Source of the DNA: Acidobacteriota bacterium
Lineage (GTDB): Bacteria; Acidobacteriota; UBA6911; RPQK01; JAJDTT01
Assembly: GCA_965217775.1 (NCBI GenBank)
Contig: CBDCJH010000002.1
Span: 1,632,001-1,696,000, forward strand
Length of the DNA stretch: 64,000 nucleotides
Reading direction: 5' to 3'
Shown here: piece after piece, positions 7,977-33,941 of the stretch
How the letters are laid out: the number at the start of each line of letters is the position of its first letter
Position numbering within the stretch: the first letter of the stretch is position 1
The notes under the pieces: model-generated
The model's input: the letters and a program-made list of their open reading frames with translations, nothing else
Told to the model about the DNA's origin: nothing
The model's database searches: none
Translations under genes and position numbers: made by a program

Positions 7977-9182
7977 TTGCGAATCACCTGGTGGACCTGC
8001 CCCTTTCTTCTATTGATAACGATTTGGGCCACCCACGCATTGATCCGTGGCCAGGGAGAGATCCGCCAGCTGATCGAGACCGGCCGGCTCCTCGAAGCCA
8101 AGGAGCTGGTCCAGCAGAAACTGGAAGCAGACCCGTCCAGTCCCGACTGGCTGTACTGGAAAGCGGTCATCGCCTTCGCCTCAGGAGACTTTTCCGAGGC
8201 GGAGAGGACGCTACAACCCGTGGTCCGGAGCCATGCTGCGTCGGGAACACATTTGTTGTTGTTGGGGGAGATCCATGACCGGAAACAGCAATGGAAGGAA
8301 GCCGCTGGAGCTTACCGGCGCGCGTTGTCTTTTCCGCACGGGTCCGACCTACTGATTCGATTGGCGCGATCCGAATTTCGCGCGGGGAATCCGCCGGCCG
8401 TCATCGAGACACTCCGGCCCCTCGCAGAGTCACCCGAAGCCACCGGCGAGGCGCACTTTCTGCTGGCGCTCTCCTATGGCCGGCAGCGAGACCTGGAACA
8501 ATCCGTCGCGCACCTGTCGAAGGCCGTCGCAAAGCAACCGGACGCCGCCTCCTATCGATTCCAGTATGCGCTCGCCCTGGCCGAGAATGGGCAGTTGGAG
8601 AACGCGGTGAAGGAACTCCGCAGAACCCTCGCACTGGAGCCCAATCTGGCCATGGCCCATTTCTACCTGGGGCAGATCCTGCACAATATGAACCTCCGCG
8701 ACGACGCCTTGGCGGCGCTGCAGCGGGCCGAGCGTCTGCAACCCGGGATTCCTCATCTGGCCTTCAGCCTGGGACTGCTCTACAAGCTCCAAGGGGACTT
8801 TGATCAGGCGATCCCGAAGTTTGAGAAGGAAATCGCCGCCGGAACCGATCACCCACCAGCTCATTTCCATCTGGCGGAGATTCTCTTTCGGAGGAACCAG
8901 ACCCACCGGAGCGAGGAGCTGATCAAACGGGCCATCGCACTCCAACCGGGAATGGCCGACTATCATCTGCTGGCGACGGAGATCGCCCTCGCGGCCGATC
9001 GGCTGGAAGAAGCCGAAGAGCAGGTCAAGACGGCCATCGGTTCGGACCCCAACTCCGGCCGTGCCCATTACCTCCGGGGGAGAGTCCTGCAGGCCATGGG
9101 CCGGACCCAGGAGGCGGGAAGCGCCTTCGAGCTCTCCCGAAAGCTGATGGACGGACGGAGGGAAGGCGCTCCCGCACCATGA
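7977..9182 (+). CDS. Tetratricopeptide repeat protein
   Basis: Multiple TPR units (AHFLLALSY, AHFYLGQIL, AHYLRGRVL); start uncertain (TTG 7977 before a signal-like stretch); ATGA overlap with next gene. Confidence 0.85.
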   Translation: MRITWWTCPFLLLITIWATHALIRGQGEIRQLIETGRLLEAKELVQQKLEADPSSPDWLYWKAVIAFASGDFSEAERTLQPVVRSHAASGTHLLLLGEIHDRKQQWKEAAGAYRRALSFPHGSDLLIRLARSEFRAGNPPAVIETLRPLAESPEATGEAHFLLALSYGRQRDLEQSVAHLSKAVAKQPDAASYRFQYALALAENGQLENAVKELRRTLALEPNLAMAHFYLGQILHNMNLRDDALAALQRAERLQPGIPHLAFSLGLLYKLQGDFDQAIPKFEKEIAAGTDHPPAHFHLAEILFRRNQTHRSEELIKRAIALQPGMADYHLLATEIALAADRLEEAEEQVKTAIGSDPNSGRAHYLRGRVLQAMGRTQEAGSAFELSRKLMDGRREGAPAP

Positions 9183-10828
9183 GAAAGGCGGTCCTCCTCC
9201 TGTCGCTGTCCGTGGTCCAGGCCTCGAGCCAGACAGGCTCGCTTCAGTTCAGAGAGAGCGCGGCCGAGGCGGGGATCGAATTCCATTTCGTGAGTGGTTC
9301 GCCCGACAAACCATTCATTATCGAATCGATCAGCGGCGGGGTCGCCCTGTTCGACTATGACAACGACGGATGGCTGGACATCTATCTGGTCAACGGGAAC
9401 ACCGTCGAGGAGTTTCTGAAAGCAAAACGCACCGTCCGGAACGCCCTCTACCGGAACCGGGGAGACGGCACATTCCTTGACGTCACGCTCCAGGCCGGCG
9501 TCTCGGGAGGCCCGTGGGACATGGGAGCGGTGGCGGCCGATGTGGACAACGACGGCTTCAAGGATCTCTTTCTCACCGGGTTCGATCGAAACACGTTGTT
9601 CCGAAACAACGGCGACGGCAGCTTCAGCGACATTACGGCCTCGTCGGGTCTGGCCGACAAGCGGTGGGGTGCCGGCGCCGCTTTCGGCGACTATGACGCG
9701 GACGGCTTGCTCGACCTGTACGTGGCCCGTTACGTGGAGTTCGAACCGCGCCATCCTCCCCCTCCCACGCCTAAGTTTTGCAGTTACCGGGGGATCTCTG
9801 TCCAATGCGGGCCCCGCGGCATGCCGGGAGCGGAAGATTCGCTCTACAAGAACCTGGGTGGCGGCCGGTTCCGGGACGTGAGCCGAGAGGCCGGCATTTT
9901 GACCGGTTCCACCTACTACGGCTTGGGTTGCATATGGTTCGACTACGACGATGATGGCGATCAGGACATTTTCGTGGCCAACGATTCCTGTCCCAACTTC
10001 CTGTTCCGGAACGAGAAGGGCCGATTCGTCGAGGTGGCGATGGAGTCCGGGGTTGCACTGGGCGAAAACGGAAATGAACAGGACGGCATGGGGATCGCGG
10101 TGGGAGACGTGAACCGCGACGGACGGCTCGATCTGGTGCAAACCAACTTCTCGGAGGACAACAACACGCTGTACGTGAACCGGGGATCCTTCTTCACGGA
10201 CTCCAGTTACCGGTGGGGACTGGGGGAGACCACCTGGCAATACCTGGGCTGGGGGACCTTCCTCTTCGATGCGGACCTGGACGGGTGGCTCGACCTCTTC
10301 ATCGCCAACGGGCACGTCTATCCCCAAGTGGACAAACATCAGATTGGGACCTCTCTCCGGCAGCGCGATCTTCTCTTCCGAAACGAAGAGGGACGGCGGC
10401 TGGTCGAGGTGGGCCGGCAGGCGGGTCTGGTCAAGCTGGAGAACACCCGTGGAGCGGCGGTGGGGGACCTGAACAATGACGGCAAAGCGGACATCGTCGT
10501 CAACCACATGGATTCGTCCGCCGGCCTGTACTGGAACCGGACCCAGACCGGAAGGCGGCACTGGATCGGCTTCAAGTTGACCGGATCGGTCTCCAACCGC
10601 GACGCGGTGGGCGCCCGCGTGACGGTTACCGCAGGGGGTCTCCGGCAAGTAGCCGTTGTGCGGAGCGGCTCCAGCTACCTCTCCCACAACGATCACCGGC
10701 TTCTGTTCGGGACCGGGAATCACGAGATCGATGAAGTGACGATTCGCTGGCCCAGCGGCAGGATGCAGACTCTGAGAGATTGGAAGCTCGACACCTACAA
10801 CCAAGTGCCTGAGCCGCGTGGCCCCTGA
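9179..10828 (+). CDS. CRTAC1-family FG-GAP repeat protein with C-terminal ASPIC/UnbV domain
   Basis: Repeats DYDNDGWLDIY, DVDNDGFKDL, DYDADGLLDL; C-terminal SNRDAVGARV...GSSYLS...FG...IRWPSG. Confidence 0.93.
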   Translation: MRKAVLLLSLSVVQASSQTGSLQFRESAAEAGIEFHFVSGSPDKPFIIESISGGVALFDYDNDGWLDIYLVNGNTVEEFLKAKRTVRNALYRNRGDGTFLDVTLQAGVSGGPWDMGAVAADVDNDGFKDLFLTGFDRNTLFRNNGDGSFSDITASSGLADKRWGAGAAFGDYDADGLLDLYVARYVEFEPRHPPPPTPKFCSYRGISVQCGPRGMPGAEDSLYKNLGGGRFRDVSREAGILTGSTYYGLGCIWFDYDDDGDQDIFVANDSCPNFLFRNEKGRFVEVAMESGVALGENGNEQDGMGIAVGDVNRDGRLDLVQTNFSEDNNTLYVNRGSFFTDSSYRWGLGETTWQYLGWGTFLFDADLDGWLDLFIANGHVYPQVDKHQIGTSLRQRDLLFRNEEGRRLVEVGRQAGLVKLENTRGAAVGDLNNDGKADIVVNHMDSSAGLYWNRTQTGRRHWIGFKLTGSVSNRDAVGARVTVTAGGLRQVAVVRSGSSYLSHNDHRLLFGTGNHEIDEVTIRWPSGRMQTLRDWKLDTYNQVPEPRGP

Positions 10829-27975: not shown

Positions 27976-29718
27976 ATGAGTCTCACGCGAAGGGAAGCCC
28001 TTGCCGCCATGATCGGCGGAGCGGCCGGGTGGGCCGCCGGTTGCGGAGCCGGCGAGACCCCCGTCCCGTCCCAAGCCAAGCTGGACCGGCTGGAAGCTGT
28101 TCGCCGGCGGCGGCGAATCATCTTCGTGGACGACAACTACGGTCTCTCCCACGCAGGAAGCGACACACCCGAGGGATTCCTGGCACCCCGGCTCAAGCCT
28201 CTGATCGGAACCCAGGTCGACGCCATCACCTACGCCGTCTACGCCCACAGTCCGGCCTACATCAGCAAGACTCGTCGCAGGCTCTACGCCGCAGCCGGAG
28301 GGACCTCGGTCACCGACCAGGCCTGGGCCCAAAACCACAAGGCGCTGGTGGACTCGGGAAACGACCCGTTGCGGCTGGTCGTCGACTTCGCCCACGAGAA
28401 TGGGATGGAAGCCTTCGCCCACATGAGCATGAACGACTGCCACGACAGCATCATGAGAAACCTCATGCACCCCTTCAAGAGCCAGCATCCGGAGCTGCTG
28501 GTGGACTCGCAGGGGACCCTCTCGAATCTGCAGTTGTACGTGACCGCCTACGACTTCTCCCACCAAGCCGCCCGGGACCGCCAGTTCACCATCGTCCGGG
28601 AGGTCTGTGAGGGGTTCGACGTGGATGGCTTCGAGATGGACTACATCCGCCACCCCATGTTTTTCAGCCGCTGCATGCGCGGCGAGCCGGCGACTCCGGA
28701 AGAAACGGCGATCATGACCGGCTTCATGGCCCGGATTCGAAAGATGGCCGATGCCGCCGCCGCTCGTCGAGGAAGACCCCTGCTGCTGTCGGCCCGGGTC
28801 CCCGATACTTTCGGGCAGGCGATTCATCTGGGCATGGATGTGGAGGCCTGGATGGCACAGGACCTGGTGGACCTGATTATCGCCGGCGGCGGCTACGCCT
28901 CCAGCACCTTGGATGTCGAGCACTTCGTCCAAACGGCCCATGAACACGACGTGCGGGTCTACCCCTGCATCAACCAGAAGCCCTGGAGCTGCGACCCGGC
29001 CTGGTGCCGGGAAGGGAACCGGGCGCTGGCGGCCCGCTGGCACCGGACCGGCGCCGACGGCATCCATTTCTGGAATCTGGCGACGCCGTTCGATCCCTAC
29101 TCCGCGGACACCCCGGAGGAGCTCGCCACGATCCGAAAGCGGGTCTATGCCTGTCTGAACGACGTGGGCGAGGCCGGGACGCTGGAAGGCGAGGACAAGC
29201 TCTACTGTGTAGACAGCTCGGTGTTCATCCACTACAAGCACGTTACGGTCGAGCCCCCTCTCCCGCTGCACCTGACGCCCGGTCGCAGAGCGAGTTTTCC
29301 GCTACCGCTGGGAGACGACGTCCAGGCCGCAGCTATTAACGGCACTCTTCAGGAACTACGGCTGGAACTAACGGTGCACGGGCACCTGCAGGAAGGCGGG
29401 TTGGAGCTGACCGTCAACGGGGAATCTGCGGGATCAGGAGACGCGGTCCGGATCGGCTACGCTCATACCCACGAGCATCGCCACGAAGCGGACGGAAATG
29501 TATCTCCCCACAGCCACTATCACTTCCAGGCTCACCAGGTGACCTATCTCCTGGACGCCCAACCGCTGAACCTGGGGGACAACGAACTGGAGTTGCTGGT
29601 CGCGTCCAGCAGCGATCCATTCAAGACCGGGGGTCCGCTCCAAGTCGTGAATGCCCAGCTCTGGGTGCGATTTTCCAATAGTACTTCTGTCAACAGCACC
29701 GTTGAGAGAAGTGGATGA
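27976..29718 (+). CDS. Tat-exported GHL10-like TIM-barrel protein
   Basis: MSLTRREAL...AGC; RRIIFVDD, AHENGME, MNDCHD, DVDGFEMDYIRHP, GADGIHFWN. Confidence 0.75.
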   Translation: MSLTRREALAAMIGGAAGWAAGCGAGETPVPSQAKLDRLEAVRRRRRIIFVDDNYGLSHAGSDTPEGFLAPRLKPLIGTQVDAITYAVYAHSPAYISKTRRRLYAAAGGTSVTDQAWAQNHKALVDSGNDPLRLVVDFAHENGMEAFAHMSMNDCHDSIMRNLMHPFKSQHPELLVDSQGTLSNLQLYVTAYDFSHQAARDRQFTIVREVCEGFDVDGFEMDYIRHPMFFSRCMRGEPATPEETAIMTGFMARIRKMADAAAARRGRPLLLSARVPDTFGQAIHLGMDVEAWMAQDLVDLIIAGGGYASSTLDVEHFVQTAHEHDVRVYPCINQKPWSCDPAWCREGNRALAARWHRTGADGIHFWNLATPFDPYSADTPEELATIRKRVYACLNDVGEAGTLEGEDKLYCVDSSVFIHYKHVTVEPPLPLHLTPGRRASFPLPLGDDVQAAAINGTLQELRLELTVHGHLQEGGLELTVNGESAGSGDAVRIGYAHTHEHRHEADGNVSPHSHYHFQAHQVTYLLDAQPLNLGDNELELLVASSSDPFKTGGPLQVVNAQLWVRFSNSTSVNSTVERSG

Positions 29719-30533
29719 TCATAGAATTACCCCAATAGCTGGAAGACCTCCGACACGCGGAAGTCGTTCAGCAAGTTCGCGACGATCCCCGATCCGTCTG
29801 CGGAACGGTGCTCGGTGTCTCCTTCGATGTCGCACGAAGTGAGGCTGTGGGTGGAGGACAGGCAAACTTCGATGAACCTTGGCGTGATCTCACCCCGGAT
29901 GACCGCGTCCTCCTCTACGCCTATTGCATCCAGAAGGGGCATTTGGAGGAACTTTCGGCGGCGTTCCGCAGGCTGTTCGCCAATAAACCCGTGGACGCGT
30001 CCATCGTTGTGGACTTGGGGTGCGGCCCGTGTACGGGTGGTCTCGCCATCGCCAACGAGCTAGGAGATCAGCCCCGTTTCGACTACATCGGCGTGGACCG
30101 ATCAATCGCGATGCGCAAGCTCGGCGAACGACTGGCAGCCGCTACGACCCAGATGGACAACGTTCGATGCCAGTGGGCAGGAGACATCGCCTCTGTATGC
30201 TGGCAACCGGCGCCCGGATGGCGACCCGTAATCGTCATTGTCTCCTACCTTCTCGCGAGTCCGACTCTGGACGTGACGATTCTCGTAGAGCAACTCGACT
30301 GCCTGCTGGCGAGGTTTGGCCGCGGTCCCGTGACGGTTCTGTACACAAACTCAGTGCAGACTGACGCCAATCGTAACTTTCCAATATTCAATGAAGAGCT
30401 GCATCGAATTGGCTTGATGTCGTCTGTTGACGACACCGGAACGATCAAGATCGAGAGATCGAGTGGCGTAACGGATCGCGCGCTCCGATATGCGCTGTTC
30501 CATCGCCCGTCGCGACGCACTCTTGCGCTCTGA
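29715..30533 (+). CDS. Class I SAM-methyltransferase-like protein; TAG at codon 8 from ATG 29715, alternative start GTG 29808
   Basis: VVDLGCGPCTG (motif I), YIGVDRS (motif II), SYLLAS. Confidence 0.7.
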
Positions 30534-30541
30534 GATTAGAC

Positions 30542-31648
30542 GTGCGGCTGCCCACGTACGAGGAACTTGCCCGTGTGGCGGAACAACTTGAAGTCTTGGA
30601 GCATCCACTCGACAAATCACTTTTCGTCGCCGGGCCACCGGGATCGGGCAAAACGGTGCTGGCGGTGCAGCGTGCAGATATGGCGTCGGAGTGGACAGAA
30701 GATGAGTCCGTTTTGATCGTCACCTACAACCGAATGCTTCGACGACTGCTGTATTTGCTGAACGAAGGGGCGGTGGATACACGGACCATGCACAGCTTCG
30801 TTTGGGCGGACTATCAAAGGCGGACTGGAATGCCTGTGCCAACAGAGCCAAATGACTCCTATGCCTACATGTGGACTGAGATGCTTGCTCGCCTTCGGCA
30901 AGCTTGGGTCGTTCCAGACAGTTCACATTTGGTGGTGGACGAGGGGCAAGACCTGCCGAAAGGATTCTTCGCATACGTCTCACACCACGTCGCCCGGGCA
31001 CTCACTGTCTTCGCAGATGACGATCAGGCGCTGAGCCGACAACGTACGACTCTTGAACAGATCAAGCGAGCAGCAAACCTGGACGATCCAATCATCCTCA
31101 AGCGAAATCACCGGAACACGCCGGAGGTGGCCGCTGTGGCGGAGCACTTCCACAGCGGGCGTCTGCCTACCGCAGAAGTCACTCGCGAGTCTAACGGCGA
31201 GTTACCGCGCCTGATCCGATCAAGAAACATCGACTACACGGCCGCTCTCGTGTCGAATTGGCGACAAACGAGAGGTGGTGCCATTGGCGTAGTCGTCTAC
31301 AGCAATCAGCAAACAGGCGTAGAATTGCACCGAAAGCTCAAGGAACGGCTGCCGGAATCGCGGGTCGACATCTACCAGCATGACGAAAAAAACGAGGATT
31401 CGACGAACGTCTTGACGGACGGCGTAACGGTGTTGAATAAGAAGTCGGTCAAAGGCCAAGAGTTCGACGCGTTGTTCATTCTCGAACTCCGACGCTTCAT
31501 TCCGTGCACGAACGACGCGGAACGCAGGGCGATGTACATGATGTGCTCTCGCGCTCGCGACAACCTGTTTCTCGTGTACGGGCCCGAAAACCTCTCAGCC
31601 CGAGCTTGGCAAGCGCTACCCGGCCCGGAGATCTTGGAACGACAATGA
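30542..31648 (+). CDS. Compact superfamily 1 (UvrD/Rep-like) helicase/ATPase
   Basis: Walker A GPPGSGKT, VTYN, TMHS, VVDEGQD, DDDQ, LKRNHRNT, SVKGQEFD, YMMCSRAR. Confidence 0.9.
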   Translation: MRLPTYEELARVAEQLEVLEHPLDKSLFVAGPPGSGKTVLAVQRADMASEWTEDESVLIVTYNRMLRRLLYLLNEGAVDTRTMHSFVWADYQRRTGMPVPTEPNDSYAYMWTEMLARLRQAWVVPDSSHLVVDEGQDLPKGFFAYVSHHVARALTVFADDDQALSRQRTTLEQIKRAANLDDPIILKRNHRNTPEVAAVAEHFHSGRLPTAEVTRESNGELPRLIRSRNIDYTAALVSNWRQTRGGAIGVVVYSNQQTGVELHRKLKERLPESRVDIYQHDEKNEDSTNVLTDGVTVLNKKSVKGQEFDALFILELRRFIPCTNDAERRAMYMMCSRARDNLFLVYGPENLSARAWQALPGPEILERQ

Positions 31649-33861
31649 CGAACACCGGTGGCCAGCAGGCTTTGTTTTCGGGTAAGTCCGGCAGGGGAGA
31701 TGTTTCTCGGAGCGACCCTGGTCCAGCAGAGGGTTGTTGGCTGGGGCTGAACACGAACCAACGTCGATTGTTCTCCGCCCTTCAAGACGGTTGGCTCCGC
31801 CCGCTGCCGCCGAATGCCGGCATGCTGCTTGGCGCCGGAACCTTTGTCCCGGAACAATGTGATGGTGGGAAGCAGCCTATCTCGGTTCGTGTGAAGTTCG
31901 ACGTACGGAAGCTGCCGAGACTGGATGCTCTCGCCTTCGGGGACAAACGGTGGGTGCGTTGGGACCCAAATGAAGTCGAACTGACCGATTTCAGCGCGTT
32001 GTACTGGCCCGGCACACTCCCAATGTTCGCTGTTTCCGCGTTAGAAGTAGCAACGGATGAGGAACAGGCACGACTTACGGGAATGGCTCGACAGTTCTCC
32101 AATGTGGAGATTCCCGTCCCAGTCACAGTGGGCACTGCGGCGCCTGCCGATCTGTCCTTCTCCATGCCTCCGCCCGAAGCAGGAATGGAACTTGCCGTCC
32201 CCAATGATTCGGACGCAATCCGCGGGTCGATGAGCATGGCAATATGGGCAGTGCCGCGCATCGATCCATGGTTGGAGGTTCTTGTGGCAAGTCTGTCTTC
32301 CGATAAGGCGCGGCTGGCGAAGTCAGCAACCAAGGTGGAAGCTGGTTGGTGGCGGGTTCCACCGTGGGTCACGCCGTCCGCCGATAGGCCAGTCGGAAAT
32401 CTGCAAGATGGTCTTTGGCGCGCTGCGGTCGAGGTCTTCCGGGAACGTTCGGACAAGGACAGTGCTCGTCCGGAAGAACTTGCCGAGAAAATCGCCGCCG
32501 TCGCCCGTTCCCACTACGGAAGTTCCGAAGTCGATGTCGCCAAGTGGCAGGGCCAGACGAAGGGAATCCTACGCGCAGAGACCACGATCCAACTCGATGA
32601 TTGGCGCGACTGTCCTGTAGGCATGACAATCCAACTTGTGTTGACCCGTCCCGAACCGACCAATTTCAAGACGTGGATCCAGGACATGCCCAATCTTCCG
32701 CCGAAGGTGTGGTGGTCTGCTGCCGCCCTTTGCGGCCTCAAACACGGCTACAAGAAGCTGGCCATCGGCTTTCGCGGTCAAGCCGCACTCCAAGAAGCGC
32801 TCTCGGTGCATGCTTTGCGTTTGAGTAACACCGCCCTTCGGAAACTTCACTGGCCTAATCTATCTGGTGACCCGAGTTGGTGCAGGGAGGCGAGCGGGTT
32901 CACGATATCTTGGGGCGACAGGAAGATCGACCAGAAACCGAATGGATCGCGCGGCCAGTGGTACGCGGCTGACTTCGGGAACGAGGACGTAAGACTTCAG
33001 GCCAAAACCGTCGCGAAACACATGAAGTGGCCATGTCTTCACATAGACCTCAAGCTCCCGTCCGGTCGTCTGCACAATTCCGGTCCGGGTACCATGTCTG
33101 TGCAGGGTCGGGAACTCGACATTCTTGGAGACGTGGAGCTACGGCTACCGTCGGGCTTCATCATTGAAGAAACGCTTGATGTTAAGGACTTCCGTCATCA
33201 TCTCGTCGTGGCCGCTGGACGACTTCCACAACCGCCGACGGCACCCGTAGCCGACACAGTTGTCCAACGGGCAAGAATCCCCGGTCTGACCTATGTGCCG
33301 GATTTTCTCAGCGAAGCTGAGGAAAGGAAAATCGTCGCAGAAATCGATCAAAACGACTGGATCGATGATCTCAAGCGGCGTGTGCAACACTACGGTTGGC
33401 GGTACGACTACAAGGCTCGGAAAGTCAACGTGACCATGCGTCTCGGTCAAATGCCCGGTTGGGCGCAAACGATAGCTCAACGCCTCGTTCAACGAGACCT
33501 CGTGCGCGAACTTCCAGATCAGGTGATCGTCAACGAGTACATTCGCGATCAGGGGATCAGCAAGCATGTAGACGCCAAATCGAGCTTCGCCGACGGCATC
33601 GCAATGATTAGCTTGTTGGAATCGTGGGAAATGGTGTTTCGTAATCAAGGCGGGCGTGGCAAGCGGAAGGAGACTCTCAGGTTGGAGCAACGTAGTGCGA
33701 CGATCATGGCGAAAGAAGCCCGGTATCAGTGGAGCCACGAAATACCGAAGCGAAAGACCGAACCGGCTGTCTCTTCACCCGGCAACGAGAAGAAGAGGCG
33801 AAGGGTAAAGAGAGTACGGCGTTTGTCGCTCACATTCCGCAAGGTGCTTAGCGAGCGTTGA
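31645..33861 (+). CDS. Large protein: unknown N-terminal region (about 545 aa) plus C-terminal AlkB-like 2OG-Fe(II) dioxygenase
   Basis: YVPDFLSEAEE, RRVQHYGWRYDY, PDQVIVNEY...GISKHVD (HxD), QWSHEI (H), RRLSLTFRKV; ATGA overlap with the helicase gene. Confidence 0.85.
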   Translation: MTNTGGQQALFSGKSGRGDVSRSDPGPAEGCWLGLNTNQRRLFSALQDGWLRPLPPNAGMLLGAGTFVPEQCDGGKQPISVRVKFDVRKLPRLDALAFGDKRWVRWDPNEVELTDFSALYWPGTLPMFAVSALEVATDEEQARLTGMARQFSNVEIPVPVTVGTAAPADLSFSMPPPEAGMELAVPNDSDAIRGSMSMAIWAVPRIDPWLEVLVASLSSDKARLAKSATKVEAGWWRVPPWVTPSADRPVGNLQDGLWRAAVEVFRERSDKDSARPEELAEKIAAVARSHYGSSEVDVAKWQGQTKGILRAETTIQLDDWRDCPVGMTIQLVLTRPEPTNFKTWIQDMPNLPPKVWWSAAALCGLKHGYKKLAIGFRGQAALQEALSVHALRLSNTALRKLHWPNLSGDPSWCREASGFTISWGDRKIDQKPNGSRGQWYAADFGNEDVRLQAKTVAKHMKWPCLHIDLKLPSGRLHNSGPGTMSVQGRELDILGDVELRLPSGFIIEETLDVKDFRHHLVVAAGRLPQPPTAPVADTVVQRARIPGLTYVPDFLSEAEERKIVAEIDQNDWIDDLKRRVQHYGWRYDYKARKVNVTMRLGQMPGWAQTIAQRLVQRDLVRELPDQVIVNEYIRDQGISKHVDAKSSFADGIAMISLLESWEMVFRNQGGRGKRKETLRLEQRSATIMAKEARYQWSHEIPKRKTEPAVSSPGNEKKRRRVKRVRRLSLTFRKVLSER

Positions 33862-33941
33862 CCGTCCGCGAAAAATCTTGTTTCGCGTGTTCAACCGAAA
33901 TTCCCGCTTCAGAATCAAGACAACTCCCAGACTGTTGTTGG

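Follow-up and report, generated by a model that had tools for sequence, protein, structure and literature searches.

What do a methyltransferase-like gene, a small helicase gene, and an AlkB-family gene do together in an Acidobacteriota genome? In the window that we analyzed (the whole stretch of 64,000 nucleotides), these genes form a compact cassette (Table 1), and the first-pass annotation had proposed that a methyl writer, an unwinder, and a methyl eraser could act together in defense or modification sensing. That logic fits the domain content, but we now predict two pairs of writer and eraser instead of one, and the AlkB domain may demethylate or hydroxylate. Our preferred explanation is tentative, if close to an even call: the cassette is a predicted DarTG-like conflict module that combines writers, erasers, and a helicase.

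Table 1. Features of the cassette, in window coordinates
Feature	Position	Strand	Residues	Description
Inserted cassette	29673..33939			4,267 bp; empty site in five same-genus genomes
Methyltransferase (MT) gene	29715..30533	+		Class I SAM-methyltransferase-like; PADLOC candidate C3a159 family; codon 8 is a stop in the assembly
In-frame TAG	29736..29738	+		Codon 8; stands where most homologs have the Trp of an N-terminal P-x-W-L motif
Helicase gene	30542..31648	+		SF1 (UvrD/HelD-like), compact, 368 aa
Fusion protein gene	31645..33861	+		738 aa; four domains: ART-like, ARH-like, beta, AlkB
ART domain	31726..32145	+	28-167	Predicted DarT/Tpt1-type ADP-ribosyltransferase fold
ARH domain	32200..32844	+	186-400	Predicted all-helical ADP-ribosylhydrolase (ARH/DraG-type) fold
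Beta domain	32857..33219	+	405-525	Beta-rich; confidently modelled
AlkB domain	33277..33858	+	545-738	ALKBH8-type 2OG/Fe(II) dioxygenase

A mobile and patchily distributed insertion

Open reading frames were called on the forward strand at 29808-30533, 30542-31648, and 31504/31645-33861; the reading frame of the MT gene begins at an ATG at 29715. The genes are co-oriented and tightly packed, as the first-pass annotation had stated: reading the sequence directly, an 8-bp gap (GATTAGAC, 30534-30541) separates the MT and helicase genes, and the helicase and fusion protein genes share ATGA at 31645-31648. The motifs that it listed are likewise present in the translations (DLGCGP in the MT; GPPGSGKT, DEGQD, KGQEFD, and SRAR in the helicase; and HxD...H...R in the AlkB domain). 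Of the flanking genes, which it described as glycoside-hydrolase-like, one matches Pfam's GHL10 under the model's cut-off, and the other encodes a TPR protein (Pfam).

The cassette is horizontally acquired, mobile, rare, and patchy. In blastn comparisons to five genomes of the same genus (G001, G003, G004, G005, and G006), window position 29672 joins 33940, with about 38 bp between them, and the trio is a clean, exact indel of 4,267 bp. Some contigs of runs X1 and X7 likewise carry the sequence of the empty site, on loose ends at position 29672. The GC content of the insert is 0.572, versus 0.614 for the window, and GC3 is 0.63-0.66 in the trio, versus 0.78-0.83 in four neighboring genes (and 0.68-0.70 in two others), which bears out an earlier impression that the trio is less GC-skewed. 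The cassette is present in two of the nine genomes of the genus and in 4 of 301 from the phylum. Between genomes G000 and G002, identity is 67-78% for the trio but 92% for the GHL10 gene next to it.

The trio is also conserved as a unit, since the same gene order is seen in dozens of unrelated contigs. Among 36 loci that encode a protein with both the N-terminal ART-ARH region ("N-domain") and AlkB, the MT is present in all 25 with at least 2,050 bp of upstream sequence (24 upstream and one downstream), and the full helicase, judged from match coverage, is present in 27 of the 29 with at least 1,150 bp upstream. In one homolog (P0116), the helicase is fused to the N-AlkB protein.

The cassette often lies near restriction-modification, Shango, toxin–antitoxin, or ICE genes. 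By raw count, four of the 12 loci examined lie within 8 kb of a PADLOC system (type I RM, DUF4297, PDC-M03, or Shango); further neighbors among the loci include Mrr/BrnT/integrase genes, an ICE that carries TrwB and an integrase, and a NERD protein. At five of the 12 loci and in the window, the neighbors are ordinary metabolic genes only, and this counts against a conflict module. So does the finding that no PADLOC system model fits the trio and that the AlkB fusion protein has no PADLOC match. This agrees with the earlier failure to match the trio to a named system, although the MT family is already PADLOC candidate C3a159, and a sister protein family is already in Pfam as 2CompART/2CompARG.

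Predicted functions of the three proteins

At the position of the TAG codon in the MT gene, homologs mostly have tryptophan, and a few carry other residues (homolog alignment). Because contigs of two other runs, X2 (depth 34.9/34.9) and X5 (4.3/4.3), have G instead of A at 29737, giving TGG, the stop codon is a polymorphism between strains, and sibling populations carry an intact allele. (The X1 contig has A, as in the assembly.) The MT matches Pfam methyltransferase models under their cut-offs and PADLOC's C3a159 at 2.9e-9. In an alignment of 24 sequences (A2), D-x-G-x-G-P and Y-x-G-x-D are invariant, and the best match of this profile in the PDB is Tmt1 (3g5t, 3.9e-5), whose products are methyl esters. 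Two observations count against a conflict module: the nearest solved relatives of the MT are Tmt1 and METTL17, not DNA base methyltransferases, and no DPPY-type motif was seen in this alignment.

The helicase matches Pfam's AAA_19 (32.9 bits, cut-off 25.1) and UvrD-helicase (23.5 bits, cut-off 23), and the residues of G-P-P-G-x-G-K-T, D-E-x-Q, N-H-R-N, G-x-E-F, and R-x-R are invariant among its homologs. Its profile (A3) matches 6wvk_H, the best solved relative, at 1.4e-24, UvrD at 8e-14, and GajB at 3e-7; it also matches PADLOC's GajB models (down to 7e-10) and NCBIfam's HelD_BACSU (6.2e-13, 47.5 bits against a cut-off of 419). It shares the SF1 core motifs with GajB, HelD, and UvrD, but it has just 368 amino acids and scores far under their family cut-offs, and neither a GajA partner nor HelD arm domains were seen at the cassette.

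The fusion protein has 232 homologs at E ≤ 1e-3 and an AlphaFold2 (AF2) model with a pLDDT of 81.6 (m4485116a40f1). Outside the AlkB domain, there was no Pfam match at E ≤ 0.1. The annotation had described a large unassigned region here; structural models now assign it a DarT/Tpt1-like ART fold followed by an ARH fold. We used a model of the N-domain (pLDDT 85.9) as the query for VIA-align. The best matches of the predicted ART domain are DarT from Thermus (7omv, Z = 9.8, 134 aligned residues, rmsd 3.2) and from M. tuberculosis (7yk3_C, Z = 9.0), followed by 7omu (Z = 8.6), yeast Tpt1 (7yw4, Z = 8.2), and E. coli DarT1 (8baq, Z = 8.0); the top five Foldseek matches of the N-domain are all DarT (best 9e-4). 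For the predicted ARH domain, the best match is ARH3 (6g1p, Z = 13.3, 207 aligned residues, rmsd 3.9), followed by MJ1187 (1t5j, Z = 12.3), a Listeria ART–ARH pair (8za7_A, Z = 11.2), ARH1 (6g28, Z = 10.9), and 6dre_A (Z = 10.3), and the whole-protein model gave agreeing matches for this region. Among 48,161 chains, 17 match the N-domain at Z ≥ 5, and 16 of the 17 are ARH-type or ART-fold entries. None of the structural matches listed for the whole-protein or N-domain models covers the beta domain. Given these folds, the system would have a writer and an eraser for each of two marks, where the annotation had proposed a single such pair.

The AlkB domain has an intact HxD...H, RxxxxxR center (H641-x-D643, H698, and R726/R732) that is invariant or nearly so in 37 homologs. 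It matches PF13532 at 5.8e-18, and its best sequence match is ALKBH8 (profile search of the PDB, 3thp, 4.8e-35); by structure (VIA), it is similar to ALKBH6 (Z = 22.5), ALKBH8 (Z = 21.1), and E. coli AlkB (Z = 17.7). Thus the dioxygenase center that was originally noted stands, but the domain is of the ALKBH8 type and not the E. coli repair type. ALKBH8 hydroxylates a tRNA side chain, which counts against a conflict module.

Could the cassette be for housekeeping alkylation repair, with the helicase as an accessory to AlkB? The domain has both the fold and the active site of AlkB, and human ALKBH3 is partnered by the ASCC3 helicase (PMC8254245). However, the domain scores 14.1 bits against NCBIfam's alkb equivalog (cut-off 231), and it is fused to ART and ARH folds. 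It is the sole PF13532 match in this genome, and seven of the nine genus members have no AlkB-family gene; the cassette is missing from those seven and from 297 of the 301 genomes in the phylum, and the locus is an insertion of foreign composition. We consider this explanation very improbable.

Related systems and rival explanations

DarTG consists of DarT, which ADP-ribosylates single-stranded DNA, and DarG, a macrodomain hydrolase. The cassette resembles it in the predicted DarT fold (Z of 8.0-9.8 to four DarT entries), in having an ADP-ribose writer and eraser at one locus, and in its mobile location close to defense genes. It differs in that its eraser is of the ARH type rather than a macrodomain and shares a polypeptide with the writer, and in the added helicase, MT, and AlkB dioxygenase. 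ARH-fold proteins also neutralize ADP-ribosyltransferases in the 6dre and 8za7 toxin–immunity pairs. We take those to be secreted interbacterial toxins that target proteins and have separate immunity proteins; in the cassette, the ART is predicted to be of the nucleic-acid (DarT/Tpt1) type, with ART and ARH on one cytoplasmic polypeptide.

A sister operon at four loci (L063, L086, L065, and L047, where the contig ends within the helicase gene) encodes a helicase, a SAP-2CompART(-2CompARG) protein, an N-extended MT, and a stand-alone AlkB that is 44-50% identical. Two of these loci have a match to 2CompARG (PF22545) at E ≤ 1e-4. By hhalign, the probabilities are 99.6% for the helicases and 99.7% for the MTs. 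The partner set is the same, the ART precedes the hydrolase in both, and there are collinear motifs (e.g., C-G-L-x-x-G-Y-K versus L-G-L-Y-Y-G-Y-K). On the other hand, the gene order is different, and the window's protein lacks SAP, joins its hydrolase side to AlkB via the extra beta domain, and matches neither Pfam model; the comparison of 2CompART (PF22546)/2CompARG to the N-domain is marginal (hhalign E = 0.0084, probability 4.8%), which counts against a conflict module.

Plasmid pAQ6 of the cyanobacterium Picosynechococcus PCC 7002 has an MT–AlkB pair without the helicase or ART/ARH, and therefore the two pairs are separable modules. Its MT matches C3a159 at 4.9e-136 and the A2 profile by hhalign at 99.3%; the window's MT and nine more homologs (5e-5 to 4.9e-136) are in the same wider family, which always adjoins an ALKBH8-like AlkB. 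The pAQ6 pair has different partners, namely a polynucleotide-kinase-like AAA_33 (kinase-WYL) protein and type III CRISPR genes, including a RAMP gene; "C3a" probably denotes CRISPR type III-associated. Burroughs and Aravind reportedly described polynucleotide-kinase-like proteins in 2016 as typical partners in RNA repair.

That kinase-like neighbor fits another explanation, a repair or counter-toxin module built around the erasers, in which the cell uses the helicase, ARH, and AlkB to clear its own DNA or RNA of ADP-ribose and alkyl adducts made by the toxins of competitors or phages or by chemicals. The ART-like domain would be an inactive reader of adducts or NAD, and the MT would mark or protect repaired molecules. 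The intact AlkB center and the clear ARH fold are as expected, and at two putative positions of the ART triad, the window's protein has Q39 and F67, which also counts against a conflict module. The MT can be lost with the other frames still open: it has the TAG allele here, and only the fusion protein remains at the degraded loci L012 and L014. Furthermore, relatives of the N-domain are fused to NADAR and DUF4326 (P0210), which are associated with ADP-ribose removal. But at the putative triad the consensus H-Y-E is retained in 22 of 37 homologs, Pfam models the sister family as a transferase plus a glycohydrolase, and pure repair needs neither a transferase-fold domain nor a SAM methyltransferase, both of which are in 25 of 25 loci. 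This explanation is possible but rather unlikely.

Alternatively, the four enzymes might work in series to build and tune one complex mark, a hypermodification, on host DNA or tRNA/rRNA. The ARH could, for instance, trim an adduct derived from ADP-ribose, which the MT then methylates and the ALKBH8-type domain hydroxylates, much as methyltransferase and hydroxylase domains are coupled in ALKBH8. The MT's link to Tmt1, a methyl-ester former, the closeness of the AlkB domain to ALKBH8, and the adjacency of MT and AlkB in three different architectures are consistent with this. ALKBH8 and the cassette share the HxD...H/R...R center and a methyltransferase partner, but the cassette's AlkB protein lacks the RRM and zinc finger, and its MT is encoded separately and belongs to another family. 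According to Zdzalik et al. 2014 (PMC4051686), ALKBH8's natural partner is a methyltransferase domain in the same protein; the authors favor an RNA substrate for the bacterial ALKBH8s. The same paper describes their DNA repair activity as weak or absent, with no MMS phenotype for an A. tumefaciens knockout, which counts against a conflict module. Against serial modification, tRNA modification would not call for a helicase, a rare and patchy spread with mobile sites is unusual for tRNA/rRNA modification, and the pAQ6 pair does without ART–ARH. We regard this as improbable.

A possible mechanism for a conflict module

Because the helicase is joined to predicted writers and erasers of both methyl and ADP-ribose marks, the cassette resembles a more elaborate relative of DarTG. 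In favor of a conflict module are the co-inheritance of the three genes, the second architecture in which the sister operon combines the same four activities, the DarT/Tpt1-type and ARH folds, the mobility of the insertion, and the defense-related neighbors and C3a159 membership. The fusions of N-domain relatives to NADAR and DUF4326 (P0210) or to a SLOG domain (P0222) add an ADP-ribose context, and an AlkB-family gene that most genus members lack does not look like a housekeeping one. The gene set, its conservation as a unit, its mobility, the folds, and the intact AlkB and helicase motifs are what the analysis shows; we infer a role in defense, the substrates, what each domain does, and any complex that the proteins might form. 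In such a self-contained module, the SF1 helicase would load on nucleic acid, most likely invading or replicating DNA but possibly RNA, and expose single strands. The DarT-like domain would then use NAD+ to ADP-ribosylate bases in the exposed strands, and the SAM methyltransferase would add methyl groups; both marks would stop the target from being copied or read. The ARH-like hydrolase and AlkB dioxygenase, which are fused to the writer, would take the same marks off the host's own nucleic acids, serving as an antidote or reset built into the cassette.

The insertion and its distribution in the genus

The cassette consists of a gene for a methyltransferase-like protein (MT), a gene for an SF1 helicase, and a gene for a fusion protein that ends in an AlkB domain. 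The first-pass annotation had described three co-oriented genes with an 8-bp gap followed by a start/stop overlap, and our reading of the window sequence bears this out: the helicase gene starts 8 bp past the MT stop, and the intervening bases are GATTAGAC. Every motif that had been quoted for the three proteins was also found in the window translations.

Genes of the cassette and the gene upstream of it (window coordinates)
Feature	Coordinates	Strand	Remarks
GHL10-like gene	27976-29718		
MT gene	29715-30533	+	frame opens at ATG 29715; longest stop-free ORF 29808-30533
Helicase gene	30542-31648	+	368 aa
Fusion gene	31645-33861	+	738 aa; ATG overlaps the helicase TGA

Within the MT frame, a TAG at 29736-29738 replaces the tryptophan of an N-terminal “P-x-W-L-x-x-L-R” motif that is kept in most of the homologues we examined. 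In two other public sequencing runs (X2 and X5), contigs that elsewhere match the window almost exactly have G at base 29737, which gives TGG, so this stop is a strain-level polymorphism and not a feature of the MT family. The contig from a third run (X1) has A at this base. The window may itself derive from X1, which therefore lends no independent support to the TAG.

Each of the nine genomes in the genus contains the GHL10-like gene that precedes the cassette in the window (90-92% identity), and the trio is present only in the window's genome and in G002. In five of these genomes (G001, G003, G004, G005, and G006), the site is empty: position 29672 joins 33940 with about 38 bp between them. 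The cassette is therefore a 4,267-bp indel that contains exactly three genes. The GC content of the insert is 0.572, versus 0.614 for the window. The codon usage of the trio had been judged by eye to be less GC-skewed, and this stands in part: GC3 is 0.63-0.66 for the trio versus 0.78-0.83 for four neighbors, but two others are at 0.68-0.70. The two copies of the trio share 67-78% protein identity. There is no integrase inside the insert, we found no direct or inverted terminal repeats at its ends, and promoter-like and terminator-like sites of the cassette were in no excess over the shuffled expectation. Across the phylum, a profile of the N-terminal domain of the fusion protein had matches in 4 of 301 genomes (2 of 185 genera); a scan of genome contigs with a single protein as the query returned only the G002 copy and one spurious match.

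The junctions show some further details. Homology of the window's GHL10-like gene to its relatives stops at 29672 and the ORF runs to its end in the insert, so that the last ~15 codons were replaced by the insertion. At the left junction in G002 (~2640-2955 of contig locus L124), the native GHL10 end and the MT start are separated by ~320 additional bases that the window lacks; if the cassette's promoter sat in these bases, then the window's cassette might rely on read-through. The GHL10-like gene and its paralogues form a greatly expanded family, with 7-14 matches per genome (E ≤ 1e-30) in all nine genomes. The orthologue in G001 (G001:C1:631180-632901) has one in-frame TGA and could be a pseudogene or reflect a sequencing error. 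Also, runs X1, X5, and X7 each contain both empty-site and insert contigs (with loose ends at 29672) from the same metagenome run, so cassette-plus and cassette-minus forms seem to coexist in natural populations. Depth differences between the flank (29500-29672) and the insert (29673-30500) are sums over contigs, and we did not take them as copy number.

Domains of the three proteins

The AlkB-type center had been described as intact, and it is: none of 37 homologues departs from D643, H698, R726, or R732, and at least 90% keep H641. Residues 545-738 match the AlkB dioxygenase family (PF13532, 66.2 bits versus a cut-off of 31.2) and score 14.1 bits against the equivalog model for the E. coli-type repair AlkB (NCBIfam TIGR00568, cut-off 231.05). 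When the domain's profile was compared to the PDB, ALKBH8 (3thp, 4.8e-35) was the best of 31 sequences. In structural comparisons, the top Foldseek matches were at 1e-14, and VIA placed ALKBH8 at Z 21.1, within about 1.5 of ALKBH6 (Z 22.5). Overall, ALKBH8 is the closest, followed by Ofd2, NMAD-1, and ALKBH6, and E. coli AlkB is not the closest; we therefore place the domain in the bacterial ALKBH8-like group. The passages of PMC4051686 that deal with this group describe weak DNA repair in vitro and name no known substrate, and the knockout of the ALKBH8-like gene of A. tumefaciens that they describe had no MMS phenotype and unaltered tRNA-Gly. We consider plain alkylation repair to be a highly improbable account of the cassette.

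The cassette's AlkB is the sole AlkB-family gene in the window's genome, and the majority of genomes in the genus have none. Among plasmids, tblastn found stand-alone AlkB-domain matches only (0 of 20 cover at least 80% of the query). The neighborhood of the match on a Streptomyces plasmid held nothing informative. On the 5,824-bp plasmid pTB4 of Roseobacter denitrificans (L108), the only other named cargo besides an ALKBH8-like AlkB is a BrnT/BrnA toxin-antitoxin pair, and a 153-aa gene of no known identity lies directly upstream of the AlkB gene. We take this AlkB to be the “RD” protein assayed in PMC4051686.

The helicase is, as first described, a compact UvrD-like member of SF1 (Pfam AAA_19, 32.9 versus a cut-off of 25.1; UvrD-helicase, 23.5 versus 23). 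The motif residues of Walker A, Walker B, and motifs III-VI are invariant in 24 sequences. Its closest solved relatives are 6wvk_H (1.4e-24), UvrD, and GajB; we take 6wvk to be B. subtilis HelD bound to RNA polymerase. The cassette's helicase differs from HelD and HelR in scoring well under both NCBIfam cut-offs (47.5 bits versus 419 and 30.3 versus 750), and it attained no cut-off of any curated NCBIfam family. PADLOC's GajB models match it partially, but unlike Gabija, the cassette has no GajA-like gene.

For MT, the proposed class I SAM-binding fold is favored by an invariant D/E-x-G-x-G motif and an invariant acidic motif after strand 2, but Pfam methyltransferase models match only below threshold (12.7-17.6 bits versus cut-offs of 23-30). 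A PDB search with its profile picks up Tmt1 (3.9e-5) and METTL17 (0.03). The window's MT also matches PADLOC's candidate methyltransferase model C3a159 (2.9e-9, model positions 54-208 of 265). The MT on pAQ6, a plasmid of Picosynechococcus PCC 7002, matches the same model over its full length (4.9e-136). By these sequence comparisons, the window's MT probably belongs to the same wider family as C3a159 and to a different branch of it.

The first ~540 residues of the fusion protein match no model in Pfam (E ≤ 0.1), NCBIfam, or PADLOC. AlphaFold2 (AF2) models of the whole protein (pLDDT 81.6) and of the N-terminal domain alone (pLDDT 85.9, pTM 0.86) both show three subdomains in this region; the N-terminal domain was folded alone because AlkB matches filled the fold searches with the whole protein. 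Just 17 chains among 48,161 PDB representatives matched the N-terminal model at Z ≥ 5. Residues 28-167 (alignments over 26-170) match four DarT entries (Z 9.8, 9.0, 8.6, and 8.0) and yeast Tpt1 (Z 8.2), and Foldseek independently puts DarT entries first (best 9e-4). In the predicted structure, then, this subdomain resembles the nucleic-acid (DarT/Tpt1) branch of the ADP-ribosyltransferase (ART) fold. In the three columns that may represent an H-Y-E triad, 22 of 37 sequences have the consensus H/Y/E, and the window reads Q/F/E.

Residues 186-400 match eight ADP-ribosylhydrolase (ARH)-type or ARH-like entries, whose Z values range from 9.4 to 13.3 and whose alignments span 185-207 residues; six of these were deposited as ADP-ribosyl- or glycohydrolases and two as ART toxin-immunity pairs. 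ARH3 is at Z 13.3 (207 aligned, rmsd 3.9), MJ1187 at 12.3, ARH1 at 10.9, and the ARH immunity proteins of the two toxin pairs at 11.2 and 10.3. For helical folds, this tool calls for Z of about 13, and most of these values are under that line, so our assignment of a probable ARH fold rests on the agreement of many ARH entries over the whole domain rather than on one score. Residues 405-525 are beta-rich, and none of the matches listed extends over this subdomain. A Foldseek search of viral BFVD models with the N-terminal domain (E ≤ 1e-3) gave 0 matches. The large region ahead of AlkB had been left unassigned in the first-pass annotation, and structural matches to the model now give it putative DarT-like ART and ARH folds.

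Linkage, sister operons, and neighborhoods

Among the candidates that we scored, 232 relatives of the fusion protein were found at E ≤ 1e-3; the majority have lengths of 720-790 aa and identities of 46-57%. One of them (P0116) is a fusion of the helicase to a protein of the 738-aa type. Among metagenome contigs, 237 relatives were confirmed, and 80 loci were kept. The N-terminal domain occurs with AlkB in 36 loci. The trio is conserved elsewhere: a full-length helicase is directly upstream in 27 of the 29 loci with at least 1,150 bp of upstream sequence (taken from alignment coverage columns), and MT is present in all 25 loci with at least 2,050 bp (24 upstream and 1 downstream). Near-duplicates (L021/L022, L024/L025, L037/L038, and L011/L013) reduce the number of independent cases. 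The two exceptions for the helicase, L012 and L014, are near-identical contigs in which only a remnant (residues 319-368) is left. These are degraded cassettes, with an intact gene for the N-terminal domain and AlkB, no MT seen, and sulfatase genes on both sides. In a contig from a viral collection, a full-length copy of the fusion lies within an apparent integrative conjugative element.

The N-terminal domain is also found in other contexts. Searching 1.84 billion representatives with its profile identified at least 413 clusters (at 50% identity, E ≤ 1e-3). The domain is joined to DUF4326 and NADAR in P0210 and to a SLOG domain in P0222; we take NADAR, DUF4326, and SLOG to be domains of NAD/ADP-ribose networks. 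Relatives without AlkB (P0210, P0222, P0238, P0250, P0268, and similar proteins) include giant proteins with DUF4326 and NADAR or SLOG, and some are stand-alone proteins of ~400 aa with the ART-like and ARH-like parts only.

Four loci (L063, L086, L065, and L047) contain a sister operon that encodes, in this order, a helicase, a ~590-aa protein, a ~500-aa protein whose C-terminal half belongs to the MT family, and an ALKBH8-like AlkB of 205-220 aa. The ~590-aa protein has 2CompART in 4 of 4 loci, 2CompARG in 2, and SAP in 2 (E ≤ 1e-4). Comparing the sister and window families by hhalign gives probabilities of 99.6% for the helicase and 99.7% for MT. Thus, the same four predicted activities recur as separate genes. 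The sister proteins match PF22546 (2CompART) and PF22545 (2CompARG) at 7e-25 and 5e-23, and the window's fusion protein has no match at E ≤ 0.1. An hhalign comparison of the window's N-terminal domain with the sister ART-ARG family (alignments A5 and A6, with 29 and 31 sequences) was only marginal (E 0.0084, probability 4.8%), with 245 collinear columns and shared short motifs; no match came from hhalign of the fusion protein with either one sister protein or a 4-sequence alignment. We regard the fusion protein as a probable divergent branch, in fused form, of the 2CompART/2CompARG family. Because Pfam models of 2CompART and 2CompARG exist, someone has already described the sister proteins. 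Our full-text literature search found no account of the cassette, of the helicase-MT-AlkB association, or of 2CompART/2CompARG, and an earlier computational account may exist.

On pAQ6, a gene for an AAA_33-kinase/WYL protein precedes those for MT (hhalign 99.3%) and an ALKBH8-like AlkB, and a RAMP CRISPR gene lies next to them. This minimal form implies that MT and AlkB are a separable two-gene core.

Two of the sister loci have other features nearby. In L065 (732-9224), two genes for ALKBH8-like AlkB proteins point toward each other across 45 bp, and a 1,601-aa Sacsin-like protein with an AAA_11/AAA_12 helicase lies ~2.3 kb past them, adjoining the sister operon. In L086, a gene for a small RRM_1 protein (8908-9279, 1e-22) follows the stand-alone ALKBH8-like AlkB after ~300 bp.

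In the loci that we examined, gene conservation does not extend past the trio. Of 12 loci with extended flanks, 4 have defense systems that PADLOC identified within ~8 kb: L019 has type I RM S and M subunits immediately upstream, L039 has PDC-M03A/B immediately downstream, and L028 and L053 have DUF4297 and Shango SngABC, respectively. Three further loci have Mrr, BrnT, and an integrase (L021), a NERD protein (L033), or TrwB, an integrase, and a DNA methylase (L089). The neighbors are metabolic in L015, L018, L027, L034, L002, and the window. Pfam (Peptidase_M41 and AAA) identifies PADLOC's “IetA” match in L015 as an FtsH-type protease, and it was left uncounted. The nearby defense genes, as raw counts over these 12 loci, are only suggestive. 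Together, the mobility, the patchy distribution, and the neighbors suggest conflict rather than housekeeping.

A proposed role in reversible modification, and its alternatives

Gene content, linkage, mobility, predicted folds, and the intact AlkB and helicase motifs come from the analysis itself, and we infer every activity, substrate, and biological role of the cassette. We read it, with slightly less than an even chance of being right, as a DarTG-like module for reversible modification with two marks. The ART and MT domains would write the marks (ADP-ribose and methyl), and the ARH and AlkB domains would erase them, as an antidote or a reset. DarT enzymes require single-stranded DNA as their substrate, and single strands are also what AlkB enzymes favor. 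For such a mechanism, it is reasonable that a helicase of its own would provide the substrate: it would expose single strands for the cassette's enzymes. That writers and erasers of two marks stay together in two architectures suggests a logic of toxin and antidote or of attack and reset. The cassette resembles DarTG in its DarT-type ART fold, but its fused hydrolase has an ARH fold instead of DarG's macrodomain, and Pfam finds no macrodomain in any of the three proteins. The cassette would work like DarTG and is probably not a member of DarTG.

Three observations argue against this DarTG-like reading: the solved structures related to MT are of enzymes other than DNA base methylases, this type of AlkB may hydroxylate rather than demethylate, and Q and F occupy the first two putative triad columns in the window. 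An eraser-centered module for repair or for countering toxins fits the departures at these columns, but it would need neither writer, and both are retained; we think this account unlikely. Another alternative is a pathway of serial hypermodification like that of ALKBH8. ALKBH8 has the closest AlkB domain. It also contains an RRM, and the RRM protein near the AlkB of L086 therefore hints at an RNA substrate. ALKBH8, which hydroxylates mcm5U, has a zinc finger and a fused Trm9-like methyltransferase as well; the 738-aa protein has no RRM or methyltransferase domain. We consider the hypermodification pathway improbable. A further reading is a natural immune or addiction system whose weapon is two chemically distinct base lesions that enzymes can reverse: the helicase would expose single strands, the DarT-like domain would write ADP-ribose and the SAM methyltransferase N-methyl lesions, and ARH and AlkB would be the antidotes; this is possible, and we hold it only tentatively.

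For annotation, these results offer putative fold assignments for ~400 formerly unassigned residues across at least 413 clusters (50% identity). Bacterial ALKBH8-like AlkB proteins are tied to one MT family in three architectures, and a helicase and a DarT-like/ARH pair are added in two of them; the linkage suggests that the product of the partner MT is a candidate substrate for AlkB. If the two-lesion reading is true, then the physiological role of the bacterial ALKBH8-like AlkB group would be that of an antitoxin, or eraser, for a partner MT, and not alkylation repair or tRNA modification. If the defense reading is true, then the principle of DarTG (reversible modification of nucleic acids by a toxin and its antidote) would be widened to methylation, in a fused system with two marks.
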